DNA of 64,000 nucleotides from Candidatus Babeliales bacterium (GCA_963722255.1 CAVRJO010000002.1:352001-416000), one strand, 5' to 3'; shown: positions 20,594 to 49,139, numbered from the stretch's first letter. Translations and numbers: made by a program. The notes: generated by a model from the sequence alone, not told the origin.

Positions 20594-21028
20594 TTAATTG
20601 TCCCTAAATGGATTAACTATTTTCATTGTAGCCAAAATAGTTTGATTATGATGCATATCCTCAGAAAATAATATAGCGCAATCATTTTCAAGTGCAGAAG
20701 CAAGTATTAGACTATCAAAATATGAAAATTGATATTTATTTGCAAGCAACAACGCTTGCTCTATAGTTTGACATGATATTGTTACGATATTAAAAATTTG
20801 GGAAAATTCCTTCAGTACCCCAGAAAGTAGTTTATAATCTATTTTTCTTTTTTTATGCATTACGTTAATAAATTCATTAACTACTTGAGTACTTATTAAC
20901 ATTTCAGAATATTTATTTATCAGCGATTCAGTAATTGTTTTTTTATCTAATTCATCAATTGAATAAGCATAAATTAATATATTTGTATCAATAAATATTT
21001 TATCTCTTATTTGCTTCTTCTCTATCAA
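20594..21028 (-). CDS. PIN-domain (VapC-like) toxin; start uncertain (TTG 21028 or ATA 21010)
   Basis: IFIDTNILIYA, STQVVNEF, SYFDSLILASA, LFSEDM. Confidence 0.9.
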   Translation of the reverse strand: MIEKKQIRDKIFIDTNILIYAYSIDELDKKTITESLINKYSEMLISTQVVNEFINVMHKKRKIDYKLLSGVLKEFSQIFNIVTISCQTIEQALLLANKYQFSYFDSLILASALENDCAILFSEDMHHNQTILATMKIVNPFRDN

Positions 21029-21316: not shown

Positions 21317-24300
21317 TTACGTCGGTCCTCCAAAACTGTATTCTCCACCACTTGCTGCTTCAGATTGCTTTTGTTCACTTTTATTTGCTGGTGAATCCGG
21401 TGGTAACGATTTTCCGGATCCCGAACCTTTATTTTCCGTTTTAGATGCAATATCTTTATCGGTTGTTTTTTTTGTTGAAGAACTTGTATCAGGCGTATCG
21501 CTGGGGCCACCGGAAGGCTGAATAACCGCTTTGTAAGCGTCTTGAGATTGTACAATTGCTTTCCATACTTCAGGTAATGTATTATCAGGGTCAAAACGAC
21601 TCCACAAATAATCTGTTTTATAGTTAGTATGCACTTTAGATCCATACAAATTTCCAGAAACTAAACTCGTTATTCCAATCGAATCACGATCATGCGTAAG
21701 CATATCTGAATAGGTAATTCCCGGATTGCCAGCTGTTTTTGCATATCCTTGTTTATCTGGTGCTATAACCGTTAATAAGAAATAATCTTGTATTGGCTGT
21801 CCTTTTTGATCTTTTATTATCCCCTTTGCATCTCTCATAGGTGCCGTATAAAGATTTTTTTGTTTTTGCAAAGCATCTTTATTTACTTGCAAACTAAATG
21901 CACCTAAGGTAAATGCAGTACTCTGTGAAAAATATTTCTTGCGCAGTTCATCTATCTTTTGTTCAAGAGCAGTGCTCAAAGGACCACTTTGTTTAACATA
22001 CGTTTCATAAATATTCGATGCTTTCACATTAGCGTACTGCATATCACTATCAAACAATGATTCTGAAATTAAACTCACCAAATAACTCGATTCTTCAGGG
22101 CGACTACCGATCGAACCGGATACAATATCTATCGTCTCTTCAAAAGATTCAGTTTTACAAGGCACAACATAATCCTCAACAACTTTGCCATCAATAGCGA
22201 GCTTTGTTTTATCGGTGTTATATATATATTGCCCACGTAAAATCTGCATTCTACCAACCGCATTTAACTTAGTTTTTCCTATAACAGGATTCATCAGATA
22301 GTCTAAAATCGGTCGTGCTTCATTTTCACGATCTACTTCTTTTTGTAAAGATTCAAAATTGGTAAAATCACAGGGAAGCGTACAACGTTTTCCTTCAGGT
22401 CTAATTTTTGGCGTAGGAATAGTTGGGACAATCTGAGGCACAAATTGATATTCTATAGAAGCTCCAGATGAAATTACTCCTACAACTTTTTGCGAAGGCG
22501 ATGGTGCACTGCACGTAAATATTAAGGCCGTTGAGGGTTCAGTATCAGGCTCTTGCCACACTTTTACTTGTAACGATGTTCCTTGCAGCATCATTTTTAT
22601 TCGATACCATGTTCCTAGTTGAAATTTTGGGGCATTAGCTGATTGTGTCAACCAACCTTTACCTTCATGCTCGTAGACACCAAAAGATACAGCTCCATCA
22701 GTTTCTTCTCTTTTAAATACAGCCATTTTTGCCAGTTGGCCTAAATCAAGTGGTGCTTTTTGAGGTTTATTAGTTTCAGCTTGATGAGTTTTAAAATCTG
22801 CAAGATTAATATCTTGCCCACCAAAATACAAACCAATATAGAATGAATTAAGCAGATAAATTGCCTGAAATCGTATCTCAACTTCATTAACCGGTTTATC
22901 TAATATCATAACCTCTTTTTGATTAAACCAGTTTTTCGTTTCAACTTTTTTTACTACTTTTTCATCAGTTTTTATAGCAAGCTCCGGTAGTACCGCAATT
23001 TCCTGACTAAAACTCTTTCGTGCAGCACTATACAGCGAAAATCCTTGAGAAGGATTTAGCTCATAAACACCCGATGAAAATCCGTAAATTGCTCCAACGT
23101 CAGCTGGAGTCAGATTATAATATGAAGGATCCGGAGATAATAATTGTGACCAATAAGATCCTAATGCTTCTGCATATTGCTCTTTTAGAGCTTCAAAATT
23201 ATTGGCCAAGAAGTTTTCATAAAATCCTAAATTCCTTTCTTGATTTTCAAGCTCACTTGTATATTTTAATTGCAACTCTCCTAACCATTCATTTTGTTGC
23301 TGCTGATAAATAAGAGAATTTGTTGAAACAAAAGACGAGAAGCTTTCAACAAACTCCTTTTCTTCCTTCTTTTGCTTAATCGCTTCTTCATCAGCTTGCC
23401 AACTGCCATATGCTGCAAAAATTTGTGGACCAACGGTCATGGCAATTAAAGGTACTGAAGCTCCACCTGTCAATGGAATCGATGCCAAAAGCAATCCCGT
23501 TGTAATAGCTGTTCCGATTAATCGTTCATGCTCTGTTAAAGCTGTATCAACCGCATCAGCCCATTCAGATGCACTAATATTGGCGCCAAATAAGTTTGCA
23601 AAATTACCAATTGTTGCTCCAATGGCATAGGTAATTGCCGTTGTCACATCGATAAATATTCGTGTAATTACTGAGATAAAATATTGGCAAAAACGTAACA
23701 CATCACCAAGCGATTTCATAAAATATTGAAATTGGAAGGTGAGTGGCTCTAAAATTGCCACTGCTGCATCTGCACCAAACTGCTCCAATTGATCAAGAAT
23801 ATCAGCTTCATACGTAGCATTTTTTGTAGCAATAAAGGCTGCCTGTGTTGAAATTAATCTAATACCTTCAACCGTTAATTTGATCATTCCCCCGGTAAAT
23901 GAAATATAACTCAAAAGATTGCCTGCAATTTGGTCTATAATAATTTCAAAGGCACTTTCAAATGCACCTCTCAATGATTTGCAAATTTCTGTATCCTTAT
24001 TTGCCAAAGTCATATCGCAAACACCCTCCATGACCGTTCCTAATACGTCCAAAGAATCTTTAGATACATTTTCAACATCTACAACAGTTTTTTCTAACTC
24101 TTGTTTGGCATTTTCTACATGATCCGCAACTTCTTTTTGAAGAGCTAACGATTTATCTAAAAGTTTTTTAGCCAAGCCAGGATTAAGACCGCTTAAAAAA
24201 ACAGCACCAACGCCAAAGCCAAGACTTTCGGCTTCTTCAGCTATTGCTTCTCCTGCATCAGTTGCAAAATCAATGAAATCTTTACCCGTTTTTTCAACAT

Positions 24301-25942
24301 CTTTCCAAACCTTTTCACCAGCATCCTCAACATCACCAGCCCAGCCAACAACATTTTTAGTAACATCAATCCATAGATCGCCAAAAAATCCCTGAACCTT
24401 TACTTGAGGATTTTCAATCTTTTTTTGATTTTGCATTACCGCATCAAATAACGCCTTTGCAGTTTGCTTTTTTGAGGTCCCTCCAGGCCCTAGAGCCATA
24501 GGCGTTTTTGTCTCTACCGTTGTTTGTTTAAATGAATCATGCACCAAATTTAAATCTTCAAGATACAAATAGTCCTCAGGAGCATACAAAAAAATTGACG
24601 GATGTGGCTGAACAATCGATTTATTTGCTAAAACATTCATCGTCGTTTCAAGATGCTTAGAGTCATAAAGATAGTTTGTTAAAGCATGAAGAATTTTAAT
24701 CATGCTTAAAAGTAATAACTCTTCTTGTAATAAAGGTTCTTGTTTAAACTTTTCATCATTAAGAGGAACTTTGATTGGATCTTTATTTTGTGCTACTGAA
24801 GCATATACTGCTGATTGATCTTCAAGCGCATAAGAAGCTAACGAATAAAAAGGCGTCTTTTGAAAATCGAGCGATGCAGTATATATTTTTTTTATATCAT
24901 CAAGCTTTTGCCATTCATCACACTGTGGAACATATCGATTACGTAAAGCATCGGTTAAAATCAAGGTTATATGAAACATTTCAGATGCATTACGCAACGA
25001 GGTAAAATCCGGTGTATAATAAGCAATCTCTATATTAGGAATATACTTAAAAATCGTTTCTTCGACCTGCTTAATTGAAAGCAGAAGCTGCTGATCTTGT
25101 ACAAAAGAACGAGTAATAGTATATTTCACATATTTTTGCCAAAAACTTGATCGGGTTAAACTTTGATTACTTATCTTATTAAGACTTGTCCAAAATGAGG
25201 TTGTAACTAAATCTTGCCATGACGAAGCTTTAATTAATCCTTGAATCGCATTCCAATCGGGTTTTACTGACCCATCAAATAACTTTTTTTCAAGCGCTGA
25301 CCATCCACCTGCTTTTCCTTCAACAAGCGTTACCAAATCTTGCCAGGATTTCGTCTCCAATAATGATCTGAAATCTATCCCATTTTGGTGTGCATAATCA
25401 GCAATACGCGCAGCAAATTCTATTTTAACGACGTATTCAAAGTAAAAATAAAAGTTCTTGAAATATTGAATTATCTTTGAATCTACCTTCAATCCTTTAG
25501 CACCAAATAATGCATCAACAGCTGCAGCGTTTTTTGAACTCACTGCATAAGGATTTGGTTTAACAGTCTTTTCATCAATGCGCTCTACCGGATTAAATAA
25601 AACTGCTGCAGTAGCTTGTATGGTTGCAAGCAAATCTTGAGCATGATTTATCGCTTGTAAAGGAGTCATTGCAAATAAATCATAACTTTTGCCATCGGCT
25701 CCCACTATTGAACCAATAAGCTGATCCTGTATACCTTGCGGTTCATGCAATACTTTTTTAACATTTTGAAAAGTTCCATGATCTTTACAAGAAACCGTAT
25801 TAATTTGATCGTCATAAAAACAAGAATCATTACGCAAATATGAAAAATATGAATTAGAGGTATTGACCAATATTTGTTTTGCACTCAATTGCCCAGCATA
25901 AAAGCAAAAAGCCAGAATCACAAAAAAGTAAAACTTTTTCAT
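21317..25942 (-). CDS. Giant (1541 aa) secreted protein: amphipathic/hydrophobic helical core, coiled coil, ConA-like beta-sandwich, low-complexity tail
   Basis: Signal peptide MKKFYFFVILAFCFYAGQLSA; LLLASIPLTGGASVPLIAM; TWYRIKMMLQGTSLQVKVW. Confidence 0.85.
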   Translation of the reverse strand: MKKFYFFVILAFCFYAGQLSAKQILVNTSNSYFSYLRNDSCFYDDQINTVSCKDHGTFQNVKKVLHEPQGIQDQLIGSIVGADGKSYDLFAMTPLQAINHAQDLLATIQATAAVLFNPVERIDEKTVKPNPYAVSSKNAAAVDALFGAKGLKVDSKIIQYFKNFYFYFEYVVKIEFAARIADYAHQNGIDFRSLLETKSWQDLVTLVEGKAGGWSALEKKLFDGSVKPDWNAIQGLIKASSWQDLVTTSFWTSLNKISNQSLTRSSFWQKYVKYTITRSFVQDQQLLLSIKQVEETIFKYIPNIEIAYYTPDFTSLRNASEMFHITLILTDALRNRYVPQCDEWQKLDDIKKIYTASLDFQKTPFYSLASYALEDQSAVYASVAQNKDPIKVPLNDEKFKQEPLLQEELLLLSMIKILHALTNYLYDSKHLETTMNVLANKSIVQPHPSIFLYAPEDYLYLEDLNLVHDSFKQTTVETKTPMALGPGGTSKKQTAKALFDAVMQNQKKIENPQVKVQGFFGDLWIDVTKNVVGWAGDVEDAGEKVWKDVEKTGKDFIDFATDAGEAIAEEAESLGFGVGAVFLSGLNPGLAKKLLDKSLALQKEVADHVENAKQELEKTVVDVENVSKDSLDVLGTVMEGVCDMTLANKDTEICKSLRGAFESAFEIIIDQIAGNLLSYISFTGGMIKLTVEGIRLISTQAAFIATKNATYEADILDQLEQFGADAAVAILEPLTFQFQYFMKSLGDVLRFCQYFISVITRIFIDVTTAITYAIGATIGNFANLFGANISASEWADAVDTALTEHERLIGTAITTGLLLASIPLTGGASVPLIAMTVGPQIFAAYGSWQADEEAIKQKKEEKEFVESFSSFVSTNSLIYQQQQNEWLGELQLKYTSELENQERNLGFYENFLANNFEALKEQYAEALGSYWSQLLSPDPSYYNLTPADVGAIYGFSSGVYELNPSQGFSLYSAARKSFSQEIAVLPELAIKTDEKVVKKVETKNWFNQKEVMILDKPVNEVEIRFQAIYLLNSFYIGLYFGGQDINLADFKTHQAETNKPQKAPLDLGQLAKMAVFKREETDGAVSFGVYEHEGKGWLTQSANAPKFQLGTWYRIKMMLQGTSLQVKVWQEPDTEPSTALIFTCSAPSPSQKVVGVISSGASIEYQFVPQIVPTIPTPKIRPEGKRCTLPCDFTNFESLQKEVDRENEARPILDYLMNPVIGKTKLNAVGRMQILRGQYIYNTDKTKLAIDGKVVEDYVVPCKTESFEETIDIVSGSIGSRPEESSYLVSLISESLFDSDMQYANVKASNIYETYVKQSGPLSTALEQKIDELRKKYFSQSTAFTLGAFSLQVNKDALQKQKNLYTAPMRDAKGIIKDQKGQPIQDYFLLTVIAPDKQGYAKTAGNPGITYSDMLTHDRDSIGITSLVSGNLYGSKVHTNYKTDYLWSRFDPDNTLPEVWKAIVQSQDAYKAVIQPSGGPSDTPDTSSSTKKTTDKDIASKTENKGSGSGKSLPPDSPANKSEQKQSEAASGGEYSFGGPT

Positions 25943-27738
25943 TGCTTTTCCTCCAAATCAGTTGATGGCAAAACGAGTTTTTCAGGTTTTATTATTTTAA
26001 ATTCTGCTTGTGCTCCAGGAGCCATAAAACCAATTCCTCCAAACAGGGCAATTGTAGAATCTAAGTTACTGAATGTTTTTTGGATAAGTTGTTCTTTTCC
26101 TTTTTTTGAAACAGTTACTGTAACAGTTTCAGGAGATGTTGTTATATCAAAAATGAAAGTAATTGAATCTTTCGCTAAGAGATCAGTATCATTTTTTGAA
26201 AGTGTGTAAAGTATATGATCATCAGTAGGTTTTGCTCGTGTTATTTGCTCTAAGGGAGAAATAATATTTTCTTTCTCTTTTTCAAAAGTTATTATCTGTT
26301 GGGCAAAACCAAGATTAATAGATCTCGTTGCAGGATCCTTATCATTAGTTTGTGTACCATAGAATCCAACTAATCGATACTGCCATAACCGTTCAGGATC
26401 TCCGGATATCCAACGACCTCTATTAAAAAATATCCCAACAAAAAAAGGATATGAACAATTAAGCAGTGTGCATTCAATAGAAACTTCGTAGGATTTTTCA
26501 TTACTTATATATTCAGTAAAAATACTATTTCTTGAAGGATCTGTAGGATAAACCTCTTCTTTTTCTCCCGGCTTTTGGAGCTTTCTAAAATCTTGTTGCC
26601 AAAAAGGCATGCCAAAAGGAACTAATCCATTTTGGAAAAAGCTCTTAGTTTTTGGATCAAATTCCCAATCGCCCTGTTGATAGATATTATACCACTGTTG
26701 TCTTTTCGGCGTATTCATGATGCTTGCTTCAAACATCTGATCGTAAGGAATAGGCGGCCAGGATAACATATGGATAGCAGGGTCACTTAAATTAATTGAT
26801 TTAAAAAGATATATTTGTTCTTGAACTGCAGCATCACTAGCCTTTTTGCGCTCATCATATATCTTTTGCAGGCCTGTTTTAAATCCATTGAAAATTTGTT
26901 GAATAAGATTTTTTTTTATAGCTTGTAATTGATTTACAAAGACTTCAAAACGTGTCTCAATCTCACCTTGCTTTTTTTGATACTCTTCAAATATCTTGCC
27001 ATCTTCTTCAACAAGCCACTGAATATACATTCCATTACCACCCATCATAAAGGACTGTAATGCTAACATAAAAAGCTCTGATATAAATTGTATGGTTGCT
27101 TCCGGTGTTATACTTTTTGCTCGAGTTACCAGTTCAGCCTGCACTGCGCGCTTTTACCAAAAATTTATACTATCTGGTAAATGGGAAGACTTACTTGTAG
27201 TAAGCAAAACAATAAATTTCAAAAGATTTTGATAATTAAACAAAATATTTTCACGCTCAAAATTGCAGTAATCAACTATTCTATCTGCTAATGATTCTTC
27301 CCAACAAACTTTTTTAGTACCCATTTTTTTTATATAACAACTTAATTTTTTAAAAGTTTTCTCAAACCGAAACTCCAATCGTTCATAAAACGTCATAGTA
27401 CGCGCTATCTGTTTTTTATAATTTTTTAAATAGCGTATTTGATGATCTAAAATAAAATTTTTAAAATGTGCTTTTGCATTGTGTGCATTATTCTCAACTA
27501 AGAGTTGAAGTTGCGGAACTACTAAATCTATTGCACAAGAGCGCTGGCTTGGTGTCGAAATGCTTAAGTCATTCAAAAGAGTTTCAATCTTTTTTTGTTC
27601 AGCATCTGAAATATGTAAACCACGATTACCGAAGATATTTTCAATAAGTTTTCGATTTTCTGTTATCAAATGAATCTGTTCAGAAGAAAATACAATAGAA
27701 AAAGTCCCGATCACAATAAGAAATAACATCTTCCTCAT
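25939..27738 (-). pseudogene. Probable single ~599-codon secreted protein gene split by one in-frame TAA (27154-27156); alternatively two CDSs (27154-27738 and 25939-27144)
   Basis: TTT TGG TAA AAG CGC GCA GTG CAG keeps both ORFs in one frame; only the first has a signal peptide; 4-bp overlaps with both neighbours. Confidence 0.65.
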
Positions 27739-29345
27739 GATGCACTCCCATCATCTGAAGGTGGAGGTGGTTCAATAACAGGCGGAGGTACAGTTTTTTC
27801 TTGTTCATTTTTTGCAATTTGTTCCTTTATGCCTTTTATAAATGCGTCAGCTGCTTGGCAACTCTTATCATTGGCTGAAACAGAAAGTCCTGCTTTAACT
27901 GCTGTCTTATTGATAATACATTGAATGCAGGGGTCAAGAATTTCCTCATTTTCAAATGCAGGATCTAAAAGTCTAGAAAAATCTCCTAAACATGCTTGTA
28001 ACATTTTAATAATACCCTCTTGAGAATTAAGCCAATCGGGTTGTGGTAACAGTTCTTGCTCATAGATATAATCTTTGGTTGGAATATTAACAAAAAGACG
28101 TTTTATATCTTTGTTATTAACTCTATCATTCTTATAAAAAGCAACGAGTATATCAGTTTGAGGACCATATAACGGTTTATATCTTGTTCTAGCATTAGCA
28201 TCAAAAACTATTTGTGCAGGCCATGGTACATTTTGAACATTTTTTGGCAAAGATTTTGCTAAGGTCGGAATTATCTTGAGCCCGCGCATTGTCTGTTCAT
28301 CATAAAAAAAAATAGGTGGATTTAACTTTGTTAATGAACGCAAAAAAGTAATTTTTTCTTGAGAAACTTGGTTTTTTCCGTCTTTATTTACCATAGTTGG
28401 TATTGAAGAATTTGGTCTATACGCATAATCTTGCATATATTCAGCAATTTTTTTTGCATGTTGGGCAAATTTATTAGCACCAACATAACCTTTGCTTATA
28501 TCTTCTTCATGCAAGGTTTGTGTATATCGATTAAAAAACTTTAAATAATCACTTAATAAATTAAGATAATTGCTTCTAAGAGAGTCAACGTCAGACTTAA
28601 TAATAGTTTGAACTTCAGGATCAGTTACTAAAACCAATTCTGCTTGCTCCATCATAATATTAAGATCAACCCCATAATCATGCTTCATAAGCATGTTTCC
28701 TGCATAAGTCGCTATCAACGGAGGCAATGACGGGAATCGTGCCCTTATTGCTCCATTCAATTGCGCTTCAACAATATTAACGAGATGGTTAATTATTAAT
28801 GTCTTCTGATTAAGACCCTGCTGAATTCCTTCTTGCAAATAACCATCTTTTCTATTTTTTGCTTTATCTTGTCCGGGTAGAAGTGAATCAATATGAGTCA
28901 TATTAAAAACTGCATAAATTTTTGTTAAATAAATGTAGAGTTCATGCAAAACAAGCATATGAATTTTTGTAAAATAGAAGGTAAAATTTTTTGAAACTTC
29001 ATCTTTTGATAAATTAGATAAAAAATTTGAAAAAAGATCACTTAATACTGAATCATCTGGGAAAAGTATTTTTCCACCCGGATGATTTACTTCGGGAGTT
29101 GCAGATTTAATAAAACTTATTAATGTCTGCTTTGCTCCATATTTACAAGCAGCAGGAAGCCGATTTTTTGTTTGCGCATTAGCTACAGTTTTGCCTCTAC
29201 TATTTTTTGGAAACGGATTAAATACTTGATCTTTTGTTAATGGTGAATCTGATCTTACGGCTGAATAAGAGAAATGGATTGAACAATAGAACGATACAAA
29301 ACAAAATAAACTATAAACAACAAAACGAGACGCAAAACGAAACAT
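27735..29345 (-). CDS. Secreted hypothetical protein (536 aa) with Pro-rich C-terminus; first gene of the operon
   Basis: RBS gagg; N-terminal hydrophobic segment; VPPPVIEPPPPS tail. Confidence 0.8.
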   Translation of the reverse strand: MFRFASRFVVYSLFCFVSFYCSIHFSYSAVRSDSPLTKDQVFNPFPKNSRGKTVANAQTKNRLPAACKYGAKQTLISFIKSATPEVNHPGGKILFPDDSVLSDLFSNFLSNLSKDEVSKNFTFYFTKIHMLVLHELYIYLTKIYAVFNMTHIDSLLPGQDKAKNRKDGYLQEGIQQGLNQKTLIINHLVNIVEAQLNGAIRARFPSLPPLIATYAGNMLMKHDYGVDLNIMMEQAELVLVTDPEVQTIIKSDVDSLRSNYLNLLSDYLKFFNRYTQTLHEEDISKGYVGANKFAQHAKKIAEYMQDYAYRPNSSIPTMVNKDGKNQVSQEKITFLRSLTKLNPPIFFYDEQTMRGLKIIPTLAKSLPKNVQNVPWPAQIVFDANARTRYKPLYGPQTDILVAFYKNDRVNNKDIKRLFVNIPTKDYIYEQELLPQPDWLNSQEGIIKMLQACLGDFSRLLDPAFENEEILDPCIQCIINKTAVKAGLSVSANDKSCQAADAFIKGIKEQIAKNEQEKTVPPPVIEPPPPSDDGSAS

Positions 29346-29508: not shown

Positions 29509-30663
29509 TTATTGATAATGAACTCTCTTCATATGCTTCTTTAAACCATCATCATAGAAATAAGATTTTGGACATTCAGAACACTTAAACTCTTTTTCAC
29601 GATTCGGATTATGTACTTGTAAATGTCTTTCAAAATCAGTTCTTTGTACAAAGCGTTTTTTACATGTTGAACAGCAATAAGGTTTTATATTTTCATGCTT
29701 AGATTTACTATGATTAGAGTAACTGTAGAAATTATAAAAACCTCTATTACATATCTCACACCAATGTTTATACTTCTCCCGATGTATTATTTTATGTGCT
29801 TCAAGTTCCTCCTTTTCTTTAAATGTTTCAGTACAATGAGGACATCGATTTGTTTCGTGAACATCTTTTATATGTCTTTCTAAATTTTGCTTATTAGCTA
29901 ATCTCTTACCACATTGTGAACATTTAAATGAAGCAAAAACGTTCCCAGAGCCTTCAATTTCATGAACTTTTTTCATGTGTGTTCTTAAATTTTGCTCATT
30001 TGCCAACCTCTTACCACAGTGTAAACATTTAAATGAACTAAAAGCAGAACCTTTTTTAGTAAATACTTTTTTTATAGGGAGAGTTTTTATATCTTTTTTT
30101 TTGGATTTTAATTTTTCCATACAAACTGCCAAATTGGCAACCGAAGATTTAATAAAGTCTAATTCATACGTAGCTGAATTCAACTCACCATTAATAGCTT
30201 TCAAATAAATATCCAAATGAGATTCAACTTCAGATAATTTCTGTTGTAACTTATCTTTATGTATTTTTATATGATCCATAAGTAAGCCTGGTTCATTAAA
30301 TTTTTCAAAACATCGAGGACATCCAAAACTCTCAAAGCTATCAATCTCCGATTGTTGAAAAAAAGATTGATTATTTATATTAAAACCATGATCAACTTCT
30401 GTAATTCCAATATTCCAATTAGTTATGCTATCTCCGTCTAGTGTCATGTTGAGTGTACTTAGACCCTCGATTTTTTGATCATCCAGCTGATCAAAAAATC
30501 GAGTAGACCCTAAAAAGGCTTCAGATTCATTATCAGAAAATCCATCGTCAGAGAAAAATGAAAAAGCAGATGGCAATGGAGCAAATAAATCAAAGGGATT
30601 ATCTTTATGCATTCCAAAAAGAGTTGTTGTAGAAAAAATTAATACGAAAAACAAGTAGTTCAT
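29509..30663 (-). CDS. Secreted protein with seven C2H2 zinc fingers
   Basis: Signal peptide MNYLFFVLIFSTTTLFG|M; seven Cx2Cx12Hx3-4H motifs. Confidence 0.92.
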   Translation of the reverse strand: MNYLFFVLIFSTTTLFGMHKDNPFDLFAPLPSAFSFFSDDGFSDNESEAFLGSTRFFDQLDDQKIEGLSTLNMTLDGDSITNWNIGITEVDHGFNINNQSFFQQSEIDSFESFGCPRCFEKFNEPGLLMDHIKIHKDKLQQKLSEVESHLDIYLKAINGELNSATYELDFIKSSVANLAVCMEKLKSKKKDIKTLPIKKVFTKKGSAFSSFKCLHCGKRLANEQNLRTHMKKVHEIEGSGNVFASFKCSQCGKRLANKQNLERHIKDVHETNRCPHCTETFKEKEELEAHKIIHREKYKHWCEICNRGFYNFYSYSNHSKSKHENIKPYCCSTCKKRFVQRTDFERHLQVHNPNREKEFKCSECPKSYFYDDGLKKHMKRVHYQ

Positions 30664-30857
30664 GGCATTCTTTCAAAAAATAAATAAGGGATGTTAAGAA
30701 AGAGTATCTATTTTTAAAGAAAATTCCAGAATTTCTCTTACTTAAAAGCATTTTTTGAAAGAATACAAAAAACCAATTTTACGAAAACAACAAAAAGAAT
30801 TATACTCAAAAATATATACAAAAAATGTATCTCACGCTAAATGAATGGAAACTATTT

Positions 30858-32063
30858 ATGAATTTTCGTATTACTCATTTTTTATTACTTTTAAGCTTTA
30901 TAGTCACATCCTATTTTAGTTGGAAAGGGTATCACTATTTTTTTGATAAAGAAAATCCAACGATTTCACTGATAGGTATTGAAGATAAGGCATATTATGC
31001 AAATGAGATGCAATGCGTTCTTAACGCACAAGATCGATATAAAGTTTCTGACATTTCAGTATGGCTTGATGGCAAATTACTGATAAATAAATTTAAAATA
31101 AATGCCTGCTCTTGCGAACATCCCTTTTTTATTTCAACAAGAACATTAACAAATGGAAATCACACCTTAAAGGCAGAAGCAGTTAATGGCACCTATAATC
31201 AAGGAAAAACATCAAAAGAGGTTTCTTTTTTTGTAGATAATACACCGTTACAAGCTGCATTCATACGACCTGAAACTGATTATAGGGTATTTCAAGGAAG
31301 AACACTTCATATTCAATTTCAAATGAACAAAGATATTAAATCTGCTCAAGTACAAGCACTATCAAATACGTATCCAGCTTTTCAGGAAGCAAAAAATTCA
31401 CCGATTTACGAATGCTTTATTCCCATTACCTGTGAAGAAACGCCCAATGAATATATAGTGACCGTACATATTGTTGATCACGTCGGCAATAGCCTAGCTC
31501 TTGAAGCAAAATTCCAGGTGGTTGCATTTCAATTCAAAAAACAAAATCTTCATATAGATCCAGCAAAAGCGCAAATGGAAAAGGAAGCGGGCATTGCTGC
31601 AGCACAGTTAGAGAATGATTTAGAACGGTTAGTAAAACTTTCTCCGGAACAAAAATTATGGCAAGGAATTTTTTATCCTCCTATTGATATCAAAGCAATA
31701 ACCACCGAATACGGAACCATTCGAACAACACAAGAACGAGGGCGCTATGCTCATAAAGCCGTAGACGTAATTAATACACCAAAATCGGTTGTTTGGGCAA
31801 CGCAGGATGGTATTATAGTCATTAAAAATCGTTATGCACATAGCGGAAATACTGTTGTTATTGATCATGGCTATGGAATTTTTTCACTTTTTTATCACCT
31901 TGATTCTTTTGCAGATATCAAGGTTGGTGACAAAATTAAGCGTGGAAATCCAATTGGTACATTAGGCAAAACCGGTTATGCAACGGGAGATCATTTACAT
32001 TGGGAGATGAGAATTAATAATATACCTGTAGATCCAATGCAATGGATAAAGCATAATTTTTAA
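30858..32063 (+). CDS. M23 family metallopeptidase with N-terminal membrane anchor and Ig-like domains
   Basis: HKAVD (HxxxD), GNTVVIDHG, YHL, TGYATGDHLHWE, VDP. Confidence 0.92.
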   Translation: MNFRITHFLLLLSFIVTSYFSWKGYHYFFDKENPTISLIGIEDKAYYANEMQCVLNAQDRYKVSDISVWLDGKLLINKFKINACSCEHPFFISTRTLTNGNHTLKAEAVNGTYNQGKTSKEVSFFVDNTPLQAAFIRPETDYRVFQGRTLHIQFQMNKDIKSAQVQALSNTYPAFQEAKNSPIYECFIPITCEETPNEYIVTVHIVDHVGNSLALEAKFQVVAFQFKKQNLHIDPAKAQMEKEAGIAAAQLENDLERLVKLSPEQKLWQGIFYPPIDIKAITTEYGTIRTTQERGRYAHKAVDVINTPKSVVWATQDGIIVIKNRYAHSGNTVVIDHGYGIFSLFYHLDSFADIKVGDKIKRGNPIGTLGKTGYATGDHLHWEMRINNIPVDPMQWIKHNF

Positions 32064-32084: not shown

Positions 32085-32696
32085 ATGGCTGATTTTTTCT
32101 TTAAAACGACAAGAATTCAGGCCCTCCTTATATCAGTTCCTAAATCACTACGCGCGATCTCTACATTATTTTTGTTGACAATCTTATTTTTGATTTGGTT
32201 TATCTGCGTCTATAAACCTTTATTCAGATACAATCATCAACAACAAACTCATTATACGAATATTCAGTCAATGCATGCTATTGGCAATAAAACTGTTGAG
32301 AAAACTAACAAAATAGAGAAACTTATTAAAAAAAAAGATACAATTTTAACTAAAAATAAAAAAAGTATAGTAGTAGATTCTTGTAACTCACCAGAAGAAA
32401 TCACTAATAAAATAGTTGCTACTCTTTTTGATTATGCTCATAAATCTCAACTAACGGTTACCAGACATACTCCTTTGAATTCAACGGAAACTGATTGGTT
32501 TTTATCATTTCATACTACCAATGAATTTCAAGGTTCTTTCAATTCGCTACTAAAATTTTTACAAAGTCTTTCAGACAATAGTCTAGGAATTCATATCAAT
32601 AACATGAGCATAGGCAAACAAAATGACTCTTCATTAATCCTCACTTTACAATATACCATTAATCACCTTAAAGAGAGCTTCAATGAAAAAAAATAA
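32085..32696 (+). CDS. PilO/GspM-like inner membrane protein
   Basis: One TM, coiled coil, C-terminal FQGSFNSLLKFLQSL...IHINNMSI pattern. Confidence 0.5.
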   Translation: MADFFFKTTRIQALLISVPKSLRAISTLFLLTILFLIWFICVYKPLFRYNHQQQTHYTNIQSMHAIGNKTVEKTNKIEKLIKKKDTILTKNKKSIVVDSCNSPEEITNKIVATLFDYAHKSQLTVTRHTPLNSTETDWFLSFHTTNEFQGSFNSLLKFLQSLSDNSLGIHINNMSIGKQNDSSLILTLQYTINHLKESFNEKK

Positions 32697-34671: not shown

Positions 34672-36171
34672 ATGCATTTGAAAAGAAGAGTTTTACTAGT
34701 TATTTTATTCATTGTGAATATAGGCATAAATACACCAAGCTCTCATGCTATGGAAGAGATCGAAAAAGAACCTCAAGAACTTTTGCCTCGTTTGCCACCG
34801 GAAATAACTTTGCCTATATTAAATTTTGCAACAAATGAAAAAGGAAAAGATGCACAACACCCTATATTTAAACTTGGAAATAACTATTATTTTTTCAAAC
34901 CTATTGCTAGGGAAACATGCTACTTAAGAATGAAAAACCCTCATGCACACGAGAGTTATTCAGTAAGTAGAAACATGAATAGATTACATATTTTGCTTGG
35001 TACCGGAATGAATCTGTTTTCTCAGCAATGTTGGCTTGGCAAAAATGTATATCATGGTAATAACTTTTATAGAATTGATGATGATATTACCATGCAGCGA
35101 TATCTTAGAAATGAAAAAAAAGAGATAGAAAGTCATCACTTCGATGGAATCAATGACAATAATCTATTTTTAATTATGGCTCATGGTAAAAAATTTAGCA
35201 GATTTTATATAGGAAAAATCGATCAAAGGCATAATCAATATTATGACAATAACAGCCGTAACTATCGCACACACGTTCCTCTCAATGATGATAATCAGCC
35301 ATTTGATTATGTATCAAATAATTATAGGGGACAAATTTCAGCATTCGCATTGTGTAAAACTATTAATAGATGTGCAATTGTAGATGAACATAAGAAAGTT
35401 GAGGTTTATACTATTGTAAGCAATGATAATGATGATGAGTCCATGCAAGTATCTCTTTCATCATCGAGAAACACCCCTGCTCACCTAAAACAAATTTCAT
35501 TTATTACACCAAATACACTTCTTGCATTATCTAACAAAGGGAAACTATTCATCGTTGCTGCTGATGCAGGTCAACCCATACAATTTTATAAACAACGCAT
35601 CAAAACTCATGGCAGTAAAAAATTAAACTTTATCAATATTGCCATTGATGCATGCCACCCCTATCAAATACTAATGCATACCCGTGATAATCATCTTATA
35701 TTCTGGGACATTAAACACAAAATTTTAATACCTCTGATACAACCAAAAGAGCAAATTCAAGATATATGGTTTTATGACGATGCATTTGGTTGTTTAGACT
35801 TACCTAGAAAAGATGTTGGTGATGAAACAATTACCGGTTGGTCAACAAATTTTACAAAGTATAGATTAAAACTTTTTTCACCTGAAAATATAGCTTCTAA
35901 CTTATTAGAAGAGTATAGTTCTCAAACAACAGTCACTCCATTCGAAAAAAAATCAAAAAAATCCTTTATTAAAAAGCATTTTAATGAAAAATTACTTAAA
36001 CCATTGGGAATTTCTGCAAGTTTAGTTGCTGGGTCTTTAGCCGCTTATTACGCACTAAAAAAATTAGAATTAAGCGACTCATTCTTTAACTACCCATTGA
36101 TTATTGGAAGTGGAATTGTAACTGCTTTAGGTGGCAATTATCTAATAAATAGATTGCTTAGCAAAAACTAA
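34672..36171 (+). CDS. Secreted protein with F-box-like motif, beta-propeller-like region and C-terminal TM pair
   Basis: ...SSHA|MEE; LLPRLPPEITLPILNF; WD-like LIFWD; two C-terminal hydrophobic helices. Confidence 0.7.
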   Translation: MHLKRRVLLVILFIVNIGINTPSSHAMEEIEKEPQELLPRLPPEITLPILNFATNEKGKDAQHPIFKLGNNYYFFKPIARETCYLRMKNPHAHESYSVSRNMNRLHILLGTGMNLFSQQCWLGKNVYHGNNFYRIDDDITMQRYLRNEKKEIESHHFDGINDNNLFLIMAHGKKFSRFYIGKIDQRHNQYYDNNSRNYRTHVPLNDDNQPFDYVSNNYRGQISAFALCKTINRCAIVDEHKKVEVYTIVSNDNDDESMQVSLSSSRNTPAHLKQISFITPNTLLALSNKGKLFIVAADAGQPIQFYKQRIKTHGSKKLNFINIAIDACHPYQILMHTRDNHLIFWDIKHKILIPLIQPKEQIQDIWFYDDAFGCLDLPRKDVGDETITGWSTNFTKYRLKLFSPENIASNLLEEYSSQTTVTPFEKKSKKSFIKKHFNEKLLKPLGISASLVAGSLAAYYALKKLELSDSFFNYPLIIGSGIVTALGGNYLINRLLSKN

Positions 36172-44903: not shown

Positions 44904-46175
44904 TCAAAAGTTCAACGTAATACCTGCGCCAATGGTATGCACACCAACAGAACGTTTGCCGTTAAAAGGAACTTTATAGAAAAACTGTAGTTGTGGTTTA
45001 AACCAAGAATCTTCGTTCATATCACACTGAAAATCATATTCTGCTTTAAAAATAAACTGATGAATTGTCCATTCTTCTAATGATACCGCCGTATTTGCTA
45101 TCTGTTGAGAAAAATCATTCGTGAACAATCCTAATCTATCATCATTGTGTTTCCAAAATTGATAAATTACCGAGGCAGATAGACCTCTATAAATTTGATA
45201 GGCTTGAAGAAAAAGATTATAACGTTGCGTAAAACCATATTCGGTATGAACTCGAGTTTCAGCTAAAAATAAAAATTCAGTTTGATCGGCATGAGTTTTT
45301 ATTCTTCGTGTTCGATTATCGCCAAAGAGTGTTAAAAATTCAAAATCGATTCCTCCACGAATATAATTGAACCAATTAAGAATTATGCCGCCTCCAAAAA
45401 AAATACCCCATGCACCATCAAAACCAAAAGGAACAAAAAATATATCATTTATATCAGTTTTGACACCCGTTGGAATAGTTAGTCCGGCACGTACGTTCAA
45501 ACCTACATTTTTTAAATATTCTTTCGCTTGAGGAAAATACTGCAACCATTCTCCCATAATAACTGCATCACCAAGTCCTGTTTTTTTCCAACCGTTTAAA
45601 TTAAGACATGGATCAAACTGTTTAAGCGTTTGCGAAAAATTATCCGTTAAATTTTCTTTAACGAGTATATCTTCTGCTGTAATATCTTGAGTTAAATCTA
45701 CAAAGCCAACGTTTTTTAAACGCATAGAAAGAACCGGCAAGAAAAAACCAACCGTTATATTATGTGGAACATGGTAGCGAGCACATAACACAGCATTAGC
45801 CAAAAGATCTAGATTTCCGCAAAATAAAAGATGACCCCGTACACCATCATCCTGCGGATTCATGAGTACATTTTGGAAAAAATTACTTTCCGGACTACTA
45901 TCTGGAAATCCTTTTAACATTGCCAAAGCATCTTGTGTTCCAGACCAGATCTGCATAACATTTACATGTTTATCAGTGCTATTATACCCTGATGATCTCA
46001 ACCCACCTTCATAATAACCCGTTATTTGCAATGGAGCACCACACCATTCTGGCGGACGTAAATTGATATCCCAAGGCCTAAAAAAGTTAATTGGAAAAAA
46101 ACCGAATGATTTATTGCTCAGGCATGATGCCACAACGAAAACGAGCAAGGCGATTTTTGTTCTTTTACCTGTCAT
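44904..46175 (-). CDS. Putative outer-membrane beta-barrel protein
   Basis: Signal peptide; amphipathic strands; GLGD and GLTIPTG motifs; C-terminal GAGITLNF. Confidence 0.7.
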   Translation of the reverse strand: MTGKRTKIALLVFVVASCLSNKSFGFFPINFFRPWDINLRPPEWCGAPLQITGYYEGGLRSSGYNSTDKHVNVMQIWSGTQDALAMLKGFPDSSPESNFFQNVLMNPQDDGVRGHLLFCGNLDLLANAVLCARYHVPHNITVGFFLPVLSMRLKNVGFVDLTQDITAEDILVKENLTDNFSQTLKQFDPCLNLNGWKKTGLGDAVIMGEWLQYFPQAKEYLKNVGLNVRAGLTIPTGVKTDINDIFFVPFGFDGAWGIFFGGGIILNWFNYIRGGIDFEFLTLFGDNRTRRIKTHADQTEFLFLAETRVHTEYGFTQRYNLFLQAYQIYRGLSASVIYQFWKHNDDRLGLFTNDFSQQIANTAVSLEEWTIHQFIFKAEYDFQCDMNEDSWFKPQLQFFYKVPFNGKRSVGVHTIGAGITLNF

Positions 46176-46199: not shown

Positions 46200-49139
46200 C
46201 TAATTATGAATTCGAAGACCAAAATCTCCTGCAAGAAGCCAATTTCCTGTTGCAGAATTCTGTACCAAAGCAGAGACATTTTTTGTTTTTTTCCCAATGT
46301 TTATTATTACAGAAAATAAATTGGGCTCAACTACTCTATAATTTTTTATATGCGGTAATGAGACAACATCCATAAATGGCTTTTCATGCATTTGTCTTGA
46401 TCGAGCACTAAAATAATGCACTCCGTCGGTAGCAAAATGGTCTCTAAAATTTGTAAAAGTAAATAATGGCATCAACCCCTTATCAAAATACCTATGATCC
46501 TGCAAAAGTTGAACAGTGGTATCAGTAATTCCATGTTTAGAAATATCGTTTACATACAAACGATAAACACGCGTCATATTTTCTAATAATGAACCCGTTG
46601 AAACATATACTTGTCCACTGTGACAAAAACCATTTTTTTGACCCGTTGCCGTCACAAAAAACAGCCTATATACCGCTCCTTTTGCATGAGGCAAAACAAT
46701 TTGATTCCATTGCATAGAGCCATAAACATCGGTTCTACAATCCTTTCCTGCAGCATTAACCAAGAGACCTTTTGAAGTTGCAAGTAAGCAAAGTGGTCCT
46801 GATACACCAACATCAAAAAAGCAACCTTCTTGCGGTGCAATTTCTATTACAACAGATCCTTTTTGCAAAGTAGCTTCTTGCACAACTTCCTGGCTTATTG
46901 CAATTCTTTCAAGCTTATTTTTAGTAAGTACAAATAAAAACTGCTCATCTGCTGCAAGTTTTTTAATTCCGTTCCAATTTCCTATTTTTTTAAATGAATA
47001 GTTTTTTTGAATACCTGCAAAATGGGGCAATATTCCGGGATCACGTGCAATTCCTGAACCATCATCGGCCGCAAGAATAGCCGCACCTTTCATACCTGCA
47101 ACAATAAGCCAAGCTTGTACCTCATCATGAACAACCACAGCTTCTGTTATTGATCCAATTTCATCCAAAACGCCACCTTCAACAACAAGCACATTAGGCT
47201 TACTTATATCCTGAGGTTCTGTTACCGGCGTAATTGAGCCATTATTATTAGTAGAAATATTGGTTGTGAAGCCTTCTTTAAATGCAGTAAAGATAGCTTC
47301 GTTATTTAAATTTCCTGTTTCAACAAGAACAATTTTTTTGTATCCTGTTGCAACAAGTAATGATACCAGATTATTGTTACCACAAAGAGGATTTGTTGTT
47401 GAAAAATCAAATAATCCATGTATACCACCGCGATCACGCTTAAATTGTTCATTAAGAAGATCAGCTAAATCGCCTTTTTCTTTTTCTGCGTCAACTCTTT
47501 CTTTATTTGGGGGAATATTTTGCGTTATTTGACAAACGACTTCAGGCTTTTCTGATTTTAAATATGCAATAAAAAATTGTTCTGTATTAATCATTGCTTT
47601 GGCTACACCTTCTTGAACTCCTGCAATACGTTGCCAAGGTGTCCATGCTGCTATTTTACCCTCTTTATCCAGAATTGCTTGAGAATGAAAGATACCAGGT
47701 TGTTGGCCACATCCTGCTTGTGCACAGGTAACATAAACCACATCTCCTTCAATTATCATATCAGTAATTAAACTTGGAAGTTCTTTACCTGCACCGACTT
47801 GAGTTTCTCTATCATATTTCGTTACAACATCTTCAAGAGAATCAACTTCATTATGCATTGCTCTGCCAAAAAGCCTACGCTCAAAATATTTGTTATCGAT
47901 ACTACTATGCTTAGATGCAATGGTTCCTTTTGATCTATCTTCTGATGACTCTTGAATAGTTTGGATTACCCCCTTATCAGTTAAGGGCAAAGCATATACT
48001 TCTTTGTCAGTTTGATGGGGCTCACCAACACCACCAACAAGAATTAGATAGATATATCCCGTACTTGTACACATGGTACGAACTTTATGTATAGAACTAC
48101 CAACTCCAGGACCACAAGCACCAATAATCTTATCGCTTCCCCGGCAAAGGCAATCCGGCATAATAGGATCAAAAACAAGCCGCTGTTGAGCATCGATTCT
48201 TCCGATTAAAAGCGCCCTACTCCCCTGCGTTTCAGAACAATCAAAAGAATTTTTAACATGTAATGCAATATAAAGCCTTCCAAGATATGGATTCCAATAC
48301 ATATCTACAGCTTTGGAATCTATAGAATAGCTTCCTCCATTAATAGAAATAACCGATTGATCAAGAGCAACAGCTTTATTACCAAATGAAGTTCCGGTTG
48401 CTGCATCTAGAACATTGAAACAATAATCTATCTTTTTTTCAGTTTTTTCTTTGCCATCGTAATCTTTTGTAAGAACTTCTTCTACTTTTCTGTCATATTT
48501 AATGACGGCAATCCCACTAGCACTTGCATCACCCCAAAGCCCTTTACTATCTTCTACTGCGGCAAAAACATAGGTGCTTTGGTTATTCTCTATTGTTCCT
48601 GTTGTACCTAATGCAAGTCCAAGAATACCAGCTGAAACATCTCCTACTACATCTTTTAAAGGCTCGGTTGCAAGTAATTTTTGATACGTTGCCGTTATAA
48701 TATTTTCAATATAACAAACAATATTTGGATTTTTTTCTGTAACAAATAGTGGATAGGTAGTGGCCGTAGAAAGATGTTTAATGGAAGAGTTAAAACAAGG
48801 ATGAACTTGATCAGGTTCTTCGTTAATCATAGCGGTTTCACAAGCAACTCCCCTTGGTTCATGAACAACATTCAATAGACTCCGCGCCGGATTATTTTCT
48901 ATATAACCATAGGCTAAAGAATCGTTCTTTTCACCTTCTTTTGAGCTACAAAAGTAGAAGTTTGCAGAATTTTGAGGCCTGTTAAAATTTGAATCAAATT
49001 CATACCCCTTAAATTTAAAGAGAGTAGGATAATAGGGTAATGGTATTGTTACCAGTTTCTGTAGATACTCTCTATATGTAGTATACGTGGGTACAATGAT
49101 TGTCGCGACAAAAATTACAATAGCGGTTCTAAGTTTCAT
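46200..49139 (-). CDS. Large secreted beta-rich (propeller-like) protein, 979 aa
   Basis: RBS aaagga; signal peptide; blades such as LLATSKGL and WLLAGDFGL. Confidence 0.75.
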   Translation of the reverse strand: MKLRTAIVIFVATIIVPTYTTYREYLQKLVTIPLPYYPTLFKFKGYEFDSNFNRPQNSANFYFCSSKEGEKNDSLAYGYIENNPARSLLNVVHEPRGVACETAMINEEPDQVHPCFNSSIKHLSTATTYPLFVTEKNPNIVCYIENIITATYQKLLATEPLKDVVGDVSAGILGLALGTTGTIENNQSTYVFAAVEDSKGLWGDASASGIAVIKYDRKVEEVLTKDYDGKEKTEKKIDYCFNVLDAATGTSFGNKAVALDQSVISINGGSYSIDSKAVDMYWNPYLGRLYIALHVKNSFDCSETQGSRALLIGRIDAQQRLVFDPIMPDCLCRGSDKIIGACGPGVGSSIHKVRTMCTSTGYIYLILVGGVGEPHQTDKEVYALPLTDKGVIQTIQESSEDRSKGTIASKHSSIDNKYFERRLFGRAMHNEVDSLEDVVTKYDRETQVGAGKELPSLITDMIIEGDVVYVTCAQAGCGQQPGIFHSQAILDKEGKIAAWTPWQRIAGVQEGVAKAMINTEQFFIAYLKSEKPEVVCQITQNIPPNKERVDAEKEKGDLADLLNEQFKRDRGGIHGLFDFSTTNPLCGNNNLVSLLVATGYKKIVLVETGNLNNEAIFTAFKEGFTTNISTNNNGSITPVTEPQDISKPNVLVVEGGVLDEIGSITEAVVVHDEVQAWLIVAGMKGAAILAADDGSGIARDPGILPHFAGIQKNYSFKKIGNWNGIKKLAADEQFLFVLTKNKLERIAISQEVVQEATLQKGSVVIEIAPQEGCFFDVGVSGPLCLLATSKGLLVNAAGKDCRTDVYGSMQWNQIVLPHAKGAVYRLFFVTATGQKNGFCHSGQVYVSTGSLLENMTRVYRLYVNDISKHGITDTTVQLLQDHRYFDKGLMPLFTFTNFRDHFATDGVHYFSARSRQMHEKPFMDVVSLPHIKNYRVVEPNLFSVIINIGKKTKNVSALVQNSATGNWLLAGDFGLRIHN

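Follow-up and report, generated by a model that had tools for sequence, protein, structure and literature searches.

Dependentiae are widespread obligate associates of protists. Three adjacent genes, here called A, B, and C, lie at positions 21317-29345 of a 64,000-nucleotide stretch of DNA (the window) from Candidatus Babeliales bacterium (GCA_963722255.1 CAVRJO010000002.1:352001-416000). The source is a metagenome-assembled genome of the Babeliales/Dependentiae, 1.62 Mb in size on two contigs, with ~33% G+C and a completeness of 93%. The trio is a conserved, clade-specific set of apparently exported proteins with a predicted B-C heterodimer, a lectin-type head, and a membrane hairpin, and the explanation that we tentatively prefer is that A, B, and C make up an exported, membrane-engaging complex of lectin type, most likely at the host interface. 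The three genes are:

27735-29345, minus strand: gene A, an open reading frame (ORF) of 536 amino acids (aa)
25939-27738, minus strand: gene B, 599 codons in a single frame with one in-frame TAA
21317-25942, minus strand: gene C, an intact ORF of 1541 aa

Organization and predicted export of the A, B, and C proteins

We used the ORF coordinates to examine the layout of the locus. Genes A and B overlap by 4 bp (27735-27738), as do genes B and C (25939-25942), which bears out the coupling of the three genes described in a first-pass annotation of the window; the peptides quoted in that annotation were all present in the translated ORFs. The hexamer AAGAGG is found 6 nt 5' of the ATG of gene A. 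A scan for promoters and terminators was itself uninformative, with promoter-like sites being rarer than in shuffled sequences and no minus-strand terminators being found inside the block.

Each of the three proteins had been said to begin with a signal peptide. We made signal-peptide calls by a crude hydropathy rule devised for this analysis rather than by SignalP, and under this rule signal-peptide-like N-termini were found in 13 of 13 relatives of A, 12 of 13 relatives of B, and 19 of 19 relatives of C, in agreement with the earlier claim. C and all 19 of its relatives exhibit a basic n-region followed by a hydrophobic h-region. The possibility that these are lipoproteins was rejected, the signal regions having no lipobox before a Cys. 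Protein A has a signal-peptide-like start, a mostly helical body, conserved Cys residues (C452 being invariant in alignment A4), and a Pro-rich tail; as judged from the alignment, the Cys conservation may be counted as consistent with export. For a cultured member of the Dependentiae, passages of PMC6561590 report only a Sec system together with many signal-peptide proteins (44% of proteins), and for TM6 genomes passages of PMC4776705 describe a type II system with two gspD copies; taken together, the only export components that these passages mention for Dependentiae are Sec, the type II system, and the two secretins. On contig C1 of the source genome, at 854358-859728, two ORFs that contain secretin domains (801 and 945 aa) are located 5 kb apart, which agrees with the two gspD copies given for TM6 in PMC4776705.

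Conservation and distribution of the locus

Of 41 related genomes, the same 14 contained both C and B, and 13 of these contained A, the single miss of A occurring at a contig that begins inside B. The order A-B-C was observed in all 13 of the loci that were fetched, the three genes being adjacent throughout and frequently overlapping; where the flank was present, the trio was divergent from a gene for an M23 peptidase, and the trio was usually followed by a uvrC-like gene. A further 17 loci on named contigs, some of them from the same genomes, gave the A-B-C order in 14 cases, the remaining 3 being cut by contig ends. The co-conservation and synteny on which the first-pass proposal of a multi-component system turned were thus found. 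When a profile of C 480-1541 was searched against 261 Dependentiae genomes, it matched 53 of them. This core of C was near-universal in the families f1 (4/4), f6 (14/14), f13 (15/16), and f11 (8/10), gave no match in f12 (0/35) or f7 (0/12), and matched 2 of 80 genomes in f19, both weakly. Against 1.84 billion representative proteins the same profile gave 239 matches at E ≤0.001, of which 123 were at E ≤1e-30; public collections label the relatives of the trio as 'hypothetical protein' only.

The trio occupies a core chromosomal position between the M23 gene and uvrC/clpB-like genes. In genomes that lack the trio, the M23 gene is still present together with the small partner gene downstream of it, and in one of these genomes (G022) the uvrC-like gene is located one small ORF from the M23 gene, so the trio behaves as a cassette between two conserved neighbors. 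Relative to a same-genus genome, A was 54% identical and B and C were each 49% identical, compared to 84% for GatB, 87% for EF-P, 77% for M23, and 67% for NusB among the neighbors, and the trio proteins also contain large lineage-specific insertions. A phage origin was rejected on the basis of the core chromosomal position and of the lack of a PHROG match. In the explanation that we prefer, the trio represents an operon that is specific to the Babeliales (Dependentiae) clade and has been passed on vertically.

Gene B probably shares a core with C and is predicted to pair with it

Two features of gene B are needed for the comparison with C:

27154-27156, minus strand: the TAA of B, with the signal peptide and the N-domain on one side (194 aa) and a conserved 401-aa core on the other
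25969-26694, minus strand: B ~349-590, homologous by profile alignment to the ConA-like sandwich of C

The two pieces of B (27154-27738, 194 aa, and 25939-27144, 401 aa) are in the same frame. In a read-through alignment with the stop represented as X, the position of the TAA is a Ser in 5 of the 5 closest relatives, in which B is intact at ~594-601 aa (relatives generally, 594-631 aa); from the codons, a change of one base (TCA to TAA) would explain the stop. No second copy of B or C was found in the source genome. In some lineages B is 398-445 aa in length and lacks the N-domain. Overall, the signal-like start and the N-domain of B are followed by a helix of moderate hydrophobicity, then by a helical stretch, and finally by a C-terminal domain that is conserved.

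The first-pass annotation held that B repeats the order of hairpin, coiled coil, and beta-sandwich found in C. By hhalign with shallow profiles (15 and 19 sequences), the probability for a B-C relationship was 16.7% (E 0.0015), and with deeper profiles (58 and 60 sequences) it rose to 75.9% (E 2.3e-5) over 311 columns, aligning B 236-581 with C 834-1172 in a collinear manner. The repeated order therefore has moderate support, and by these profiles the two beta domains appear to be related, as had been supposed; B is probably a shorter paralogue of the hairpin-stalk-sandwich core of C. Comparison of A to B and C by hhalign detected a short motif only and was not significant (E 0.038 and 0.12). 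The motif is found near the end of the helical N-terminal part of each protein, at A 340-348 (NPPIFFYD; window 28302-28328), C 447-452 (PSIFLY; 24587-24604), and B 187-194 (LPDSINFW; 27157-27180), the copy in B standing immediately before the TAA; across the proteins the patterns are NPPxFFYD, PSIFLY, and LPxxINFW, respectively.

We also predicted the structure of a complex between C 800-1175 and B 199-599, using our own alignments. The B-C pair scored 0.66 (runs of 0.66, 0.71, and 0.01), and the best of three controls scored 0.00. Of 157 solved complexes, 116 scored at least this high, as did 2 of 215 mismatched pairs; because we used our own alignments, these counts apply here only approximately. 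The runs shared at least 14% of their contacts, and the predicted local distance difference test (pLDDT) score of the partner was at least 63 (63-74). Confident contacts recur at a spacing of 3-4 residues where C 868-930 and B 257-311 run side by side in parallel register, and further contacts of this kind join one jelly roll to the other. In the models, this pattern resembles a heterodimeric coiled-coil stalk with paired heads, and it supports binding of B to C through a predicted parallel coiled coil.

Domain organization of protein C

Protein C can be divided into seven segments:

24443-25879, minus strand: C 22-500, a conserved N-terminal domain, apparently mostly helical, with invariant residues in alignment A1 and no family or PDB match
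23573-24391, minus strand: C 518-790, a region of long and strongly amphipathic helices with a high content of Ala, Gly, Asp, and Glu
23399-23527, minus strand: C 806-848, an uncharged helical hairpin with the tip T-G-G-A-S at 825-829
23138-23398, minus strand: C 849-935, a stalk helix with predicted parallel pairing to B 257-311
22430-23119, minus strand: C 942-1171, a concanavalin A (ConA)-like beta jelly roll of the lectin/glucanase type with an invariant Y-E-H strand motif
21515-22297, minus strand: C 1216-1476, two tandem homologous alpha/beta repeats of ~125-135 aa
21320-21502, minus strand: C 1481-1541, a disordered tail rich in Ser, Gly, Pro, Thr, and Lys (pLDDT 32-50)

An AlphaFold2 model of C 480-1541, made from 60 sequences, had a mean pLDDT of 68. 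Residues 480-880 were modeled entirely as long helices, with a pLDDT that was mostly below 50 and never above ~61. The helical hydrophobic moments in this region exceeded those of shuffled sequences by 6.0 standard deviations at C 536-573, 3.8 at C 588-644, and 5.6 at C 713-784. The weak profile matches of C 518-790 were to proteins with repeats of the ApoLp-III or Baculo_PEP_C type.

The hairpin is formed by two uniformly hydrophobic segments, C 806-824 and C 830-848, modeled as helix, turn (T-G-G-A-S), and helix, with a pLDDT of 60-61 at ~C 790-809, 53 at ~C 810-819, and 37-47 from ~C 820 to 879. The region C 800-850 retains its hydrophobic character in 50 of 52 members, making it the most conserved hydrophobic feature of the family, and the median 17-residue hydropathy of the hairpin is 2.06. 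Lys and Arg are absent from the tip in 50 of 50 members, compared to ~2.4 in each flank. Under the positive-inside rule, which provides the basis for judging the charge of the tip, a tip without Lys or Arg is a poor fit to the cytoplasmic loop of an inner-membrane protein. Ten of 52 members contain tip insertions of 93-332 aa that are rich in Ala, Glu, and Lys, and because of these long insertions the tip must face water.

The model is confident from ~C 890 onward (pLDDT 85-97), and a 60-residue helix (C 876-935) leads into the jelly roll. The jelly roll is modeled as a curved two-sheet beta fold of ~200 residues that can be superposed on known ConA-like members, and its Foldseek matches were to legume lectins and ERGIC-53 (E ~3e-5). 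It contains an invariant polar strand (Y1090-E1091-H1092, with W1097; E1093 is not invariant in alignment A1). A relationship to neurotoxin receptor-binding domains was rejected, the corresponding Foldseek rows reflecting the jelly roll only (template modeling [TM] score 0.07-0.16, root mean square deviation [rmsd] 28-44). The features that the first-pass annotation had read in C are thus recovered: the amphipathic helices by their moments relative to shuffles, the hydrophobic segment by its presence in 50 of 52 members, the ConA-like beta-sandwich by the model of C 942-1171 and its Foldseek matches, and a likely coiled coil by the 60-residue model helix and the heptad-spaced B-C interface of the predicted complex.

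When C 1172-1480 was folded alone, the pLDDT was 91.2 and the predicted TM score 0.83. The two repeats of C 1216-1476 are homologous to each other (hhalign 99.7%, E 7.8e-27). No structural neighbor of the repeat module was found among 48,161 PDB representatives, and the best Foldseek match to viral structures was at E 0.013. This well-predicted, new module would be worth solving in its own right. The tail of C that follows it ends in a conserved short motif, a hydrophobic residue followed by Gly-Gly (alignment A1).

The repeat module is also found in Dependentiae orphan proteins of ~1800-2000 aa (profile E 1e-9 to 1e-16), which were detected in G014, G121, G123, G124, G050, G005, and other genomes; the profile search found none in the source genome. 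Unlike C, the orphans are encoded at other loci with other neighbors (M17 peptidase, GH1), and they have no Pfam family. Three of them, of 1793-1992 aa, were located at 4227-10205 of L039, 4894-10755 of L040, and 4850-10231 of L041, where the neighboring genes encode an M17 peptidase, a GH1 glycosidase, and an alpha/beta hydrolase.

Comparison to known families and systems

Scans of A, B, and C against Pfam, NCBIfam, and PHROGs gave nothing meaningful (for C, no Pfam family up to E 1), and Pfam scans of 19 relatives of C and 15 relatives of B gave no family. Profile searches of the PDB (alignments A1, A2, and A4) matched only designed helical bundles or low-complexity entries, at E 0.003 or worse, and the ESM Atlas contained no usable match for C or A. 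A description of the family was not found in the literature on Dependentiae lectins and Babeliales pore-forming proteins. We considered membership in the 3-keto-disaccharide hydrolase/DUF1080 family (PF06439) and rejected it, with no match in C, B, or their relatives; P0147, a distant profile match to the sandwich segment, has PF06439 in another part of its chain. The ConA-like relatives of the C jelly roll include the carbohydrate-binding module (CBM) CBM66 of B. subtilis levanase (4b1m), ECA2234 (3mep), the C-terminal lectin-like domain of thrombospondin (2rhp/1ux6), ERGIC-53, and legume lectins. Sequence identity to these is 10-12%, no Pfam lectin, CBM, or 3keto-disac_hyd match was obtained, and, unlike them, the roll of C forms part of a 1541-aa protein that also has a membrane hairpin.

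The first-pass annotation had compared C to the SctE translocators (SipB/IpaB/YopB) on the basis of the T-G-G-A-S segment, a G-G-A-S-type turn being ascribed there to SctE proteins. Long helices are common to SctE and C, as are a hydrophobic hairpin and a helix resembling a coiled coil; the hairpin (C 806-848) and stalk (C 876-935) do supply an SctE-type hairpin and coiled coil, a feature that is generic rather than family-defining. C differs in being three times larger and in having a lectin-type roll and repeat modules, and it begins with a Sec-type signal, SctE proteins having no cleavable Sec signal and depending for export on an N-terminal T3S signal and a chaperone. FHIPEP/SctV, the export gate of type III secretion systems (T3SS), gave 0 matches in the 93%-complete source genome, the control being positive in 4 of 14 reference genomes. 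No SseC (PF04888) or IpaB-type family was matched by C up to E 1 or by 19 relatives up to E 0.1; a search of the whole genome for SseC carries no weight, since its control matched nowhere. Because there is no T3SS export gate, the signals are of Sec type, and no SseC/IpaB-type Pfam family is matched, we do not uphold the SctE resemblance and consider that C is not an SctE translocator.

Two other systems share features with the trio. The tripartite toxins of the ClyA family (Hbl, Nhe, AhlABC/SmhABC), which consist of three adjacent, co-transcribed, exported components, some with a hydrophobic hairpin, are like the trio in these respects of adjacency, export, and hairpin. The components of such toxins are paralogues of one fold, of ~35-45 kDa, whereas the trio proteins are 536, 599, and 1541 aa and only B and C share a core. 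HBL/HlyE Pfam families had no match in the trio or in the relatives of B and C; the helical part was modeled at a pLDDT below 50, too low for its fold to be compared. In the Inc proteins of Chlamydiae and the LegC-type effectors of Legionella, a bilobed hydrophobic hairpin is followed by a coiled coil, an arrangement that C resembles, and these are likewise proteins of intracellular bacteria. Inc and LegC proteins differ in that they are substrates of a T3SS or T4SS (type IV secretion system) and lack both a Sec signal and a lectin domain; they are also much smaller, and no sequence relation was found. The trio thus combines the known ConA-like superfold with unknown domains in an architecture that was not matched to any described system.

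A model for the A-B-C complex and its alternatives

Our tentative preference is for an exported complex of lectin type that engages a membrane. A, B, and C would be exported by Sec, and perhaps then pass through one of the two secretins of the genome. Pairing of B with C would occur through the two stalks, and carbohydrate on the host (phagosome or vacuole) membrane would be bound by the lectin-type heads, paired in this way, and by the repeat modules of C; the complex probably engages a glycan. The hairpin and amphipathic helices of C would anchor the complex in the host membrane or disturb it, and A could serve as a third subunit or as an assembly factor. A site at the host interface is favored by the restriction of the trio to a clade, by its faster evolution compared to its neighbors, by the large insertions specific to particular lineages, and by the lack of positive charge at the hairpin tip. 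Several points weigh against this proposal. With its median hydropathy of 2.06, the hairpin could stop transfer in SecYEG and so anchor C in the bacterium's own inner membrane, and the 10 long tip insertions have a Lys-rich end next to the second arm, which fits a cytoplasmic loop. The trio stands beside the M23 peptidase gene in every locus where the flank is present. The membrane-active part of C was modeled at a pLDDT below 50, one of the three B-C runs scored 0.01, and a ConA-like fold, here a modeled one, would not prove sugar binding. In addition, passage across the outer membrane is an inferred step, and B is broken by the TAA in the source genome with no second copy. The nonsense codon means that the complex may be impaired in this genome.

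Some of these same observations would be accounted for if A-B-C were instead a complex of the bacterium's own envelope, with the hairpin anchoring C in the inner membrane, its tip in the cytoplasm, and the stalk, the lectin-type head, and the repeats, paired with B, extending into the periplasm to bind peptidoglycan or another envelope glycan in the service of envelope architecture or division. We regard this as unlikely, though still a serious competitor. A hairpin strong enough to be a stop-transfer signal, the Lys-rich end of the insertions in 10 of 52 members, the constant and divergent placement of the trio beside the M23 gene, and its core chromosomal position all fit such a complex; against it, 208 of 261 Dependentiae genomes have no match to the cluster, and M23 persists in trio-less genomes along with its small partner, so the adjacency may be incidental. 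The trio evolves about twice as fast as its housekeeping neighbors, and the absence of Lys and Arg from the short tips in 50 of 50 members would be unusual for a cytoplasmic loop. An envelope structure of this sort would still represent a new family with a new fold. The stop codon in B suggests another explanation, compatible with any of the others, that the operon is decaying in this genome, with the TAA a real nonsense mutation and the complex no longer made. The Ser in 5 of 5 close relatives, the lack of a signal peptide on the 401-aa remainder, and the lack of a second B copy are consistent with decay. Note that A and C are full length and B has no other defect, which points to a very recent change or to an assembly error, and that in some lineages B naturally lacks the N-domain (398-445 aa); we consider decay to be rather improbable.

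The first-pass annotation had interpreted the locus as an alpha-pore-forming toxin or translocon, the helices and hairpin of C inserting into the host or vacuole membrane and opening a pore through which exported proteins could possibly pass. Such a function accords with three coupled exported components, with the strongly amphipathic helices and conserved helical hairpin of C, and with the receptor-binding-type jelly roll downstream, the succession of helices, lectin-like roll, and further domains recalling modular toxins. A neurotoxin receptor-binding domain did appear, weakly, in the Foldseek list (E 5e-5, probability 0.69, TM 0.07-0.15, rmsd 28), and the source genome has no T3SS gate, Sec being the only system reported in passages of PMC6561590. 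No pore-former or translocator family was matched at the thresholds used, the helical part has no confident fold so that a structural match is impossible, and the trio proteins are far larger than those of the tripartite ClyA-type toxins. The positive support for a pore or translocon is confined to the amphipathic helices and the hairpin, and we judge this function improbable, a little more so than decay. Least probable of all, in our estimation, is a bolder version in which A-B-C is the host-membrane device of the Dependentiae, a phylum found inside protists and lacking type III and type IV secretion. A B-C heterodimer exported by Sec and the type II system would dock on host vacuole glycans through its paired lectin heads and the new repeat modules, and the amphipathic helices and hairpin of C would then open the membrane for effectors. 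These effectors would be signal-peptide-bearing ankyrin, zinc-finger, and other eukaryote-like proteins that reach the host cytosol. If this were true, the trio would represent a new class of Sec-dependent translocon on a fold not yet seen.

Neighboring genes

The gene immediately upstream of A in the window (29509-30663, minus strand) encodes a C2H2 protein of 384 aa whose zinc fingers, six to seven in number, are of the eukaryote type (Pfam E 9e-27) and whose N-terminus is hydrophobic and signal-like, making it a candidate exported eukaryote-like protein. The first-pass annotation had linked this gene to the trio. The link did not hold up, since A lies directly beside the M23 gene in 12 of 12 relatives' loci that contain both; in these the gap is 70-450 bp with no ORF listed, and the zinc-finger gene separates A from M23 in the window only. 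Given the empty gap in the relatives, the zinc-finger gene is a window-specific insertion.

The M23 peptidase gene (30825-32063, plus strand) encodes a protein with an N-terminal membrane helix, and is followed by the gene for a small membrane protein of ~190-200 aa (32085-32696, plus strand). This pair is kept across Dependentiae genomes, trio-less ones included, with a within-genus identity of 27% for the small partner vs 77% for M23. Just downstream of C is a PIN-domain gene (20594-21028, minus strand; Pfam E 6e-16), in whose place a collinear same-genus locus (L009) has no ORF of at least 120 aa. Elsewhere in the window, large ORFs with no Pfam family at E 0.001 are located at 46200-49139 (minus strand, 979 aa), 44904-46175 (minus strand, 423 aa), and 34672-36171 (plus strand, 499 aa).

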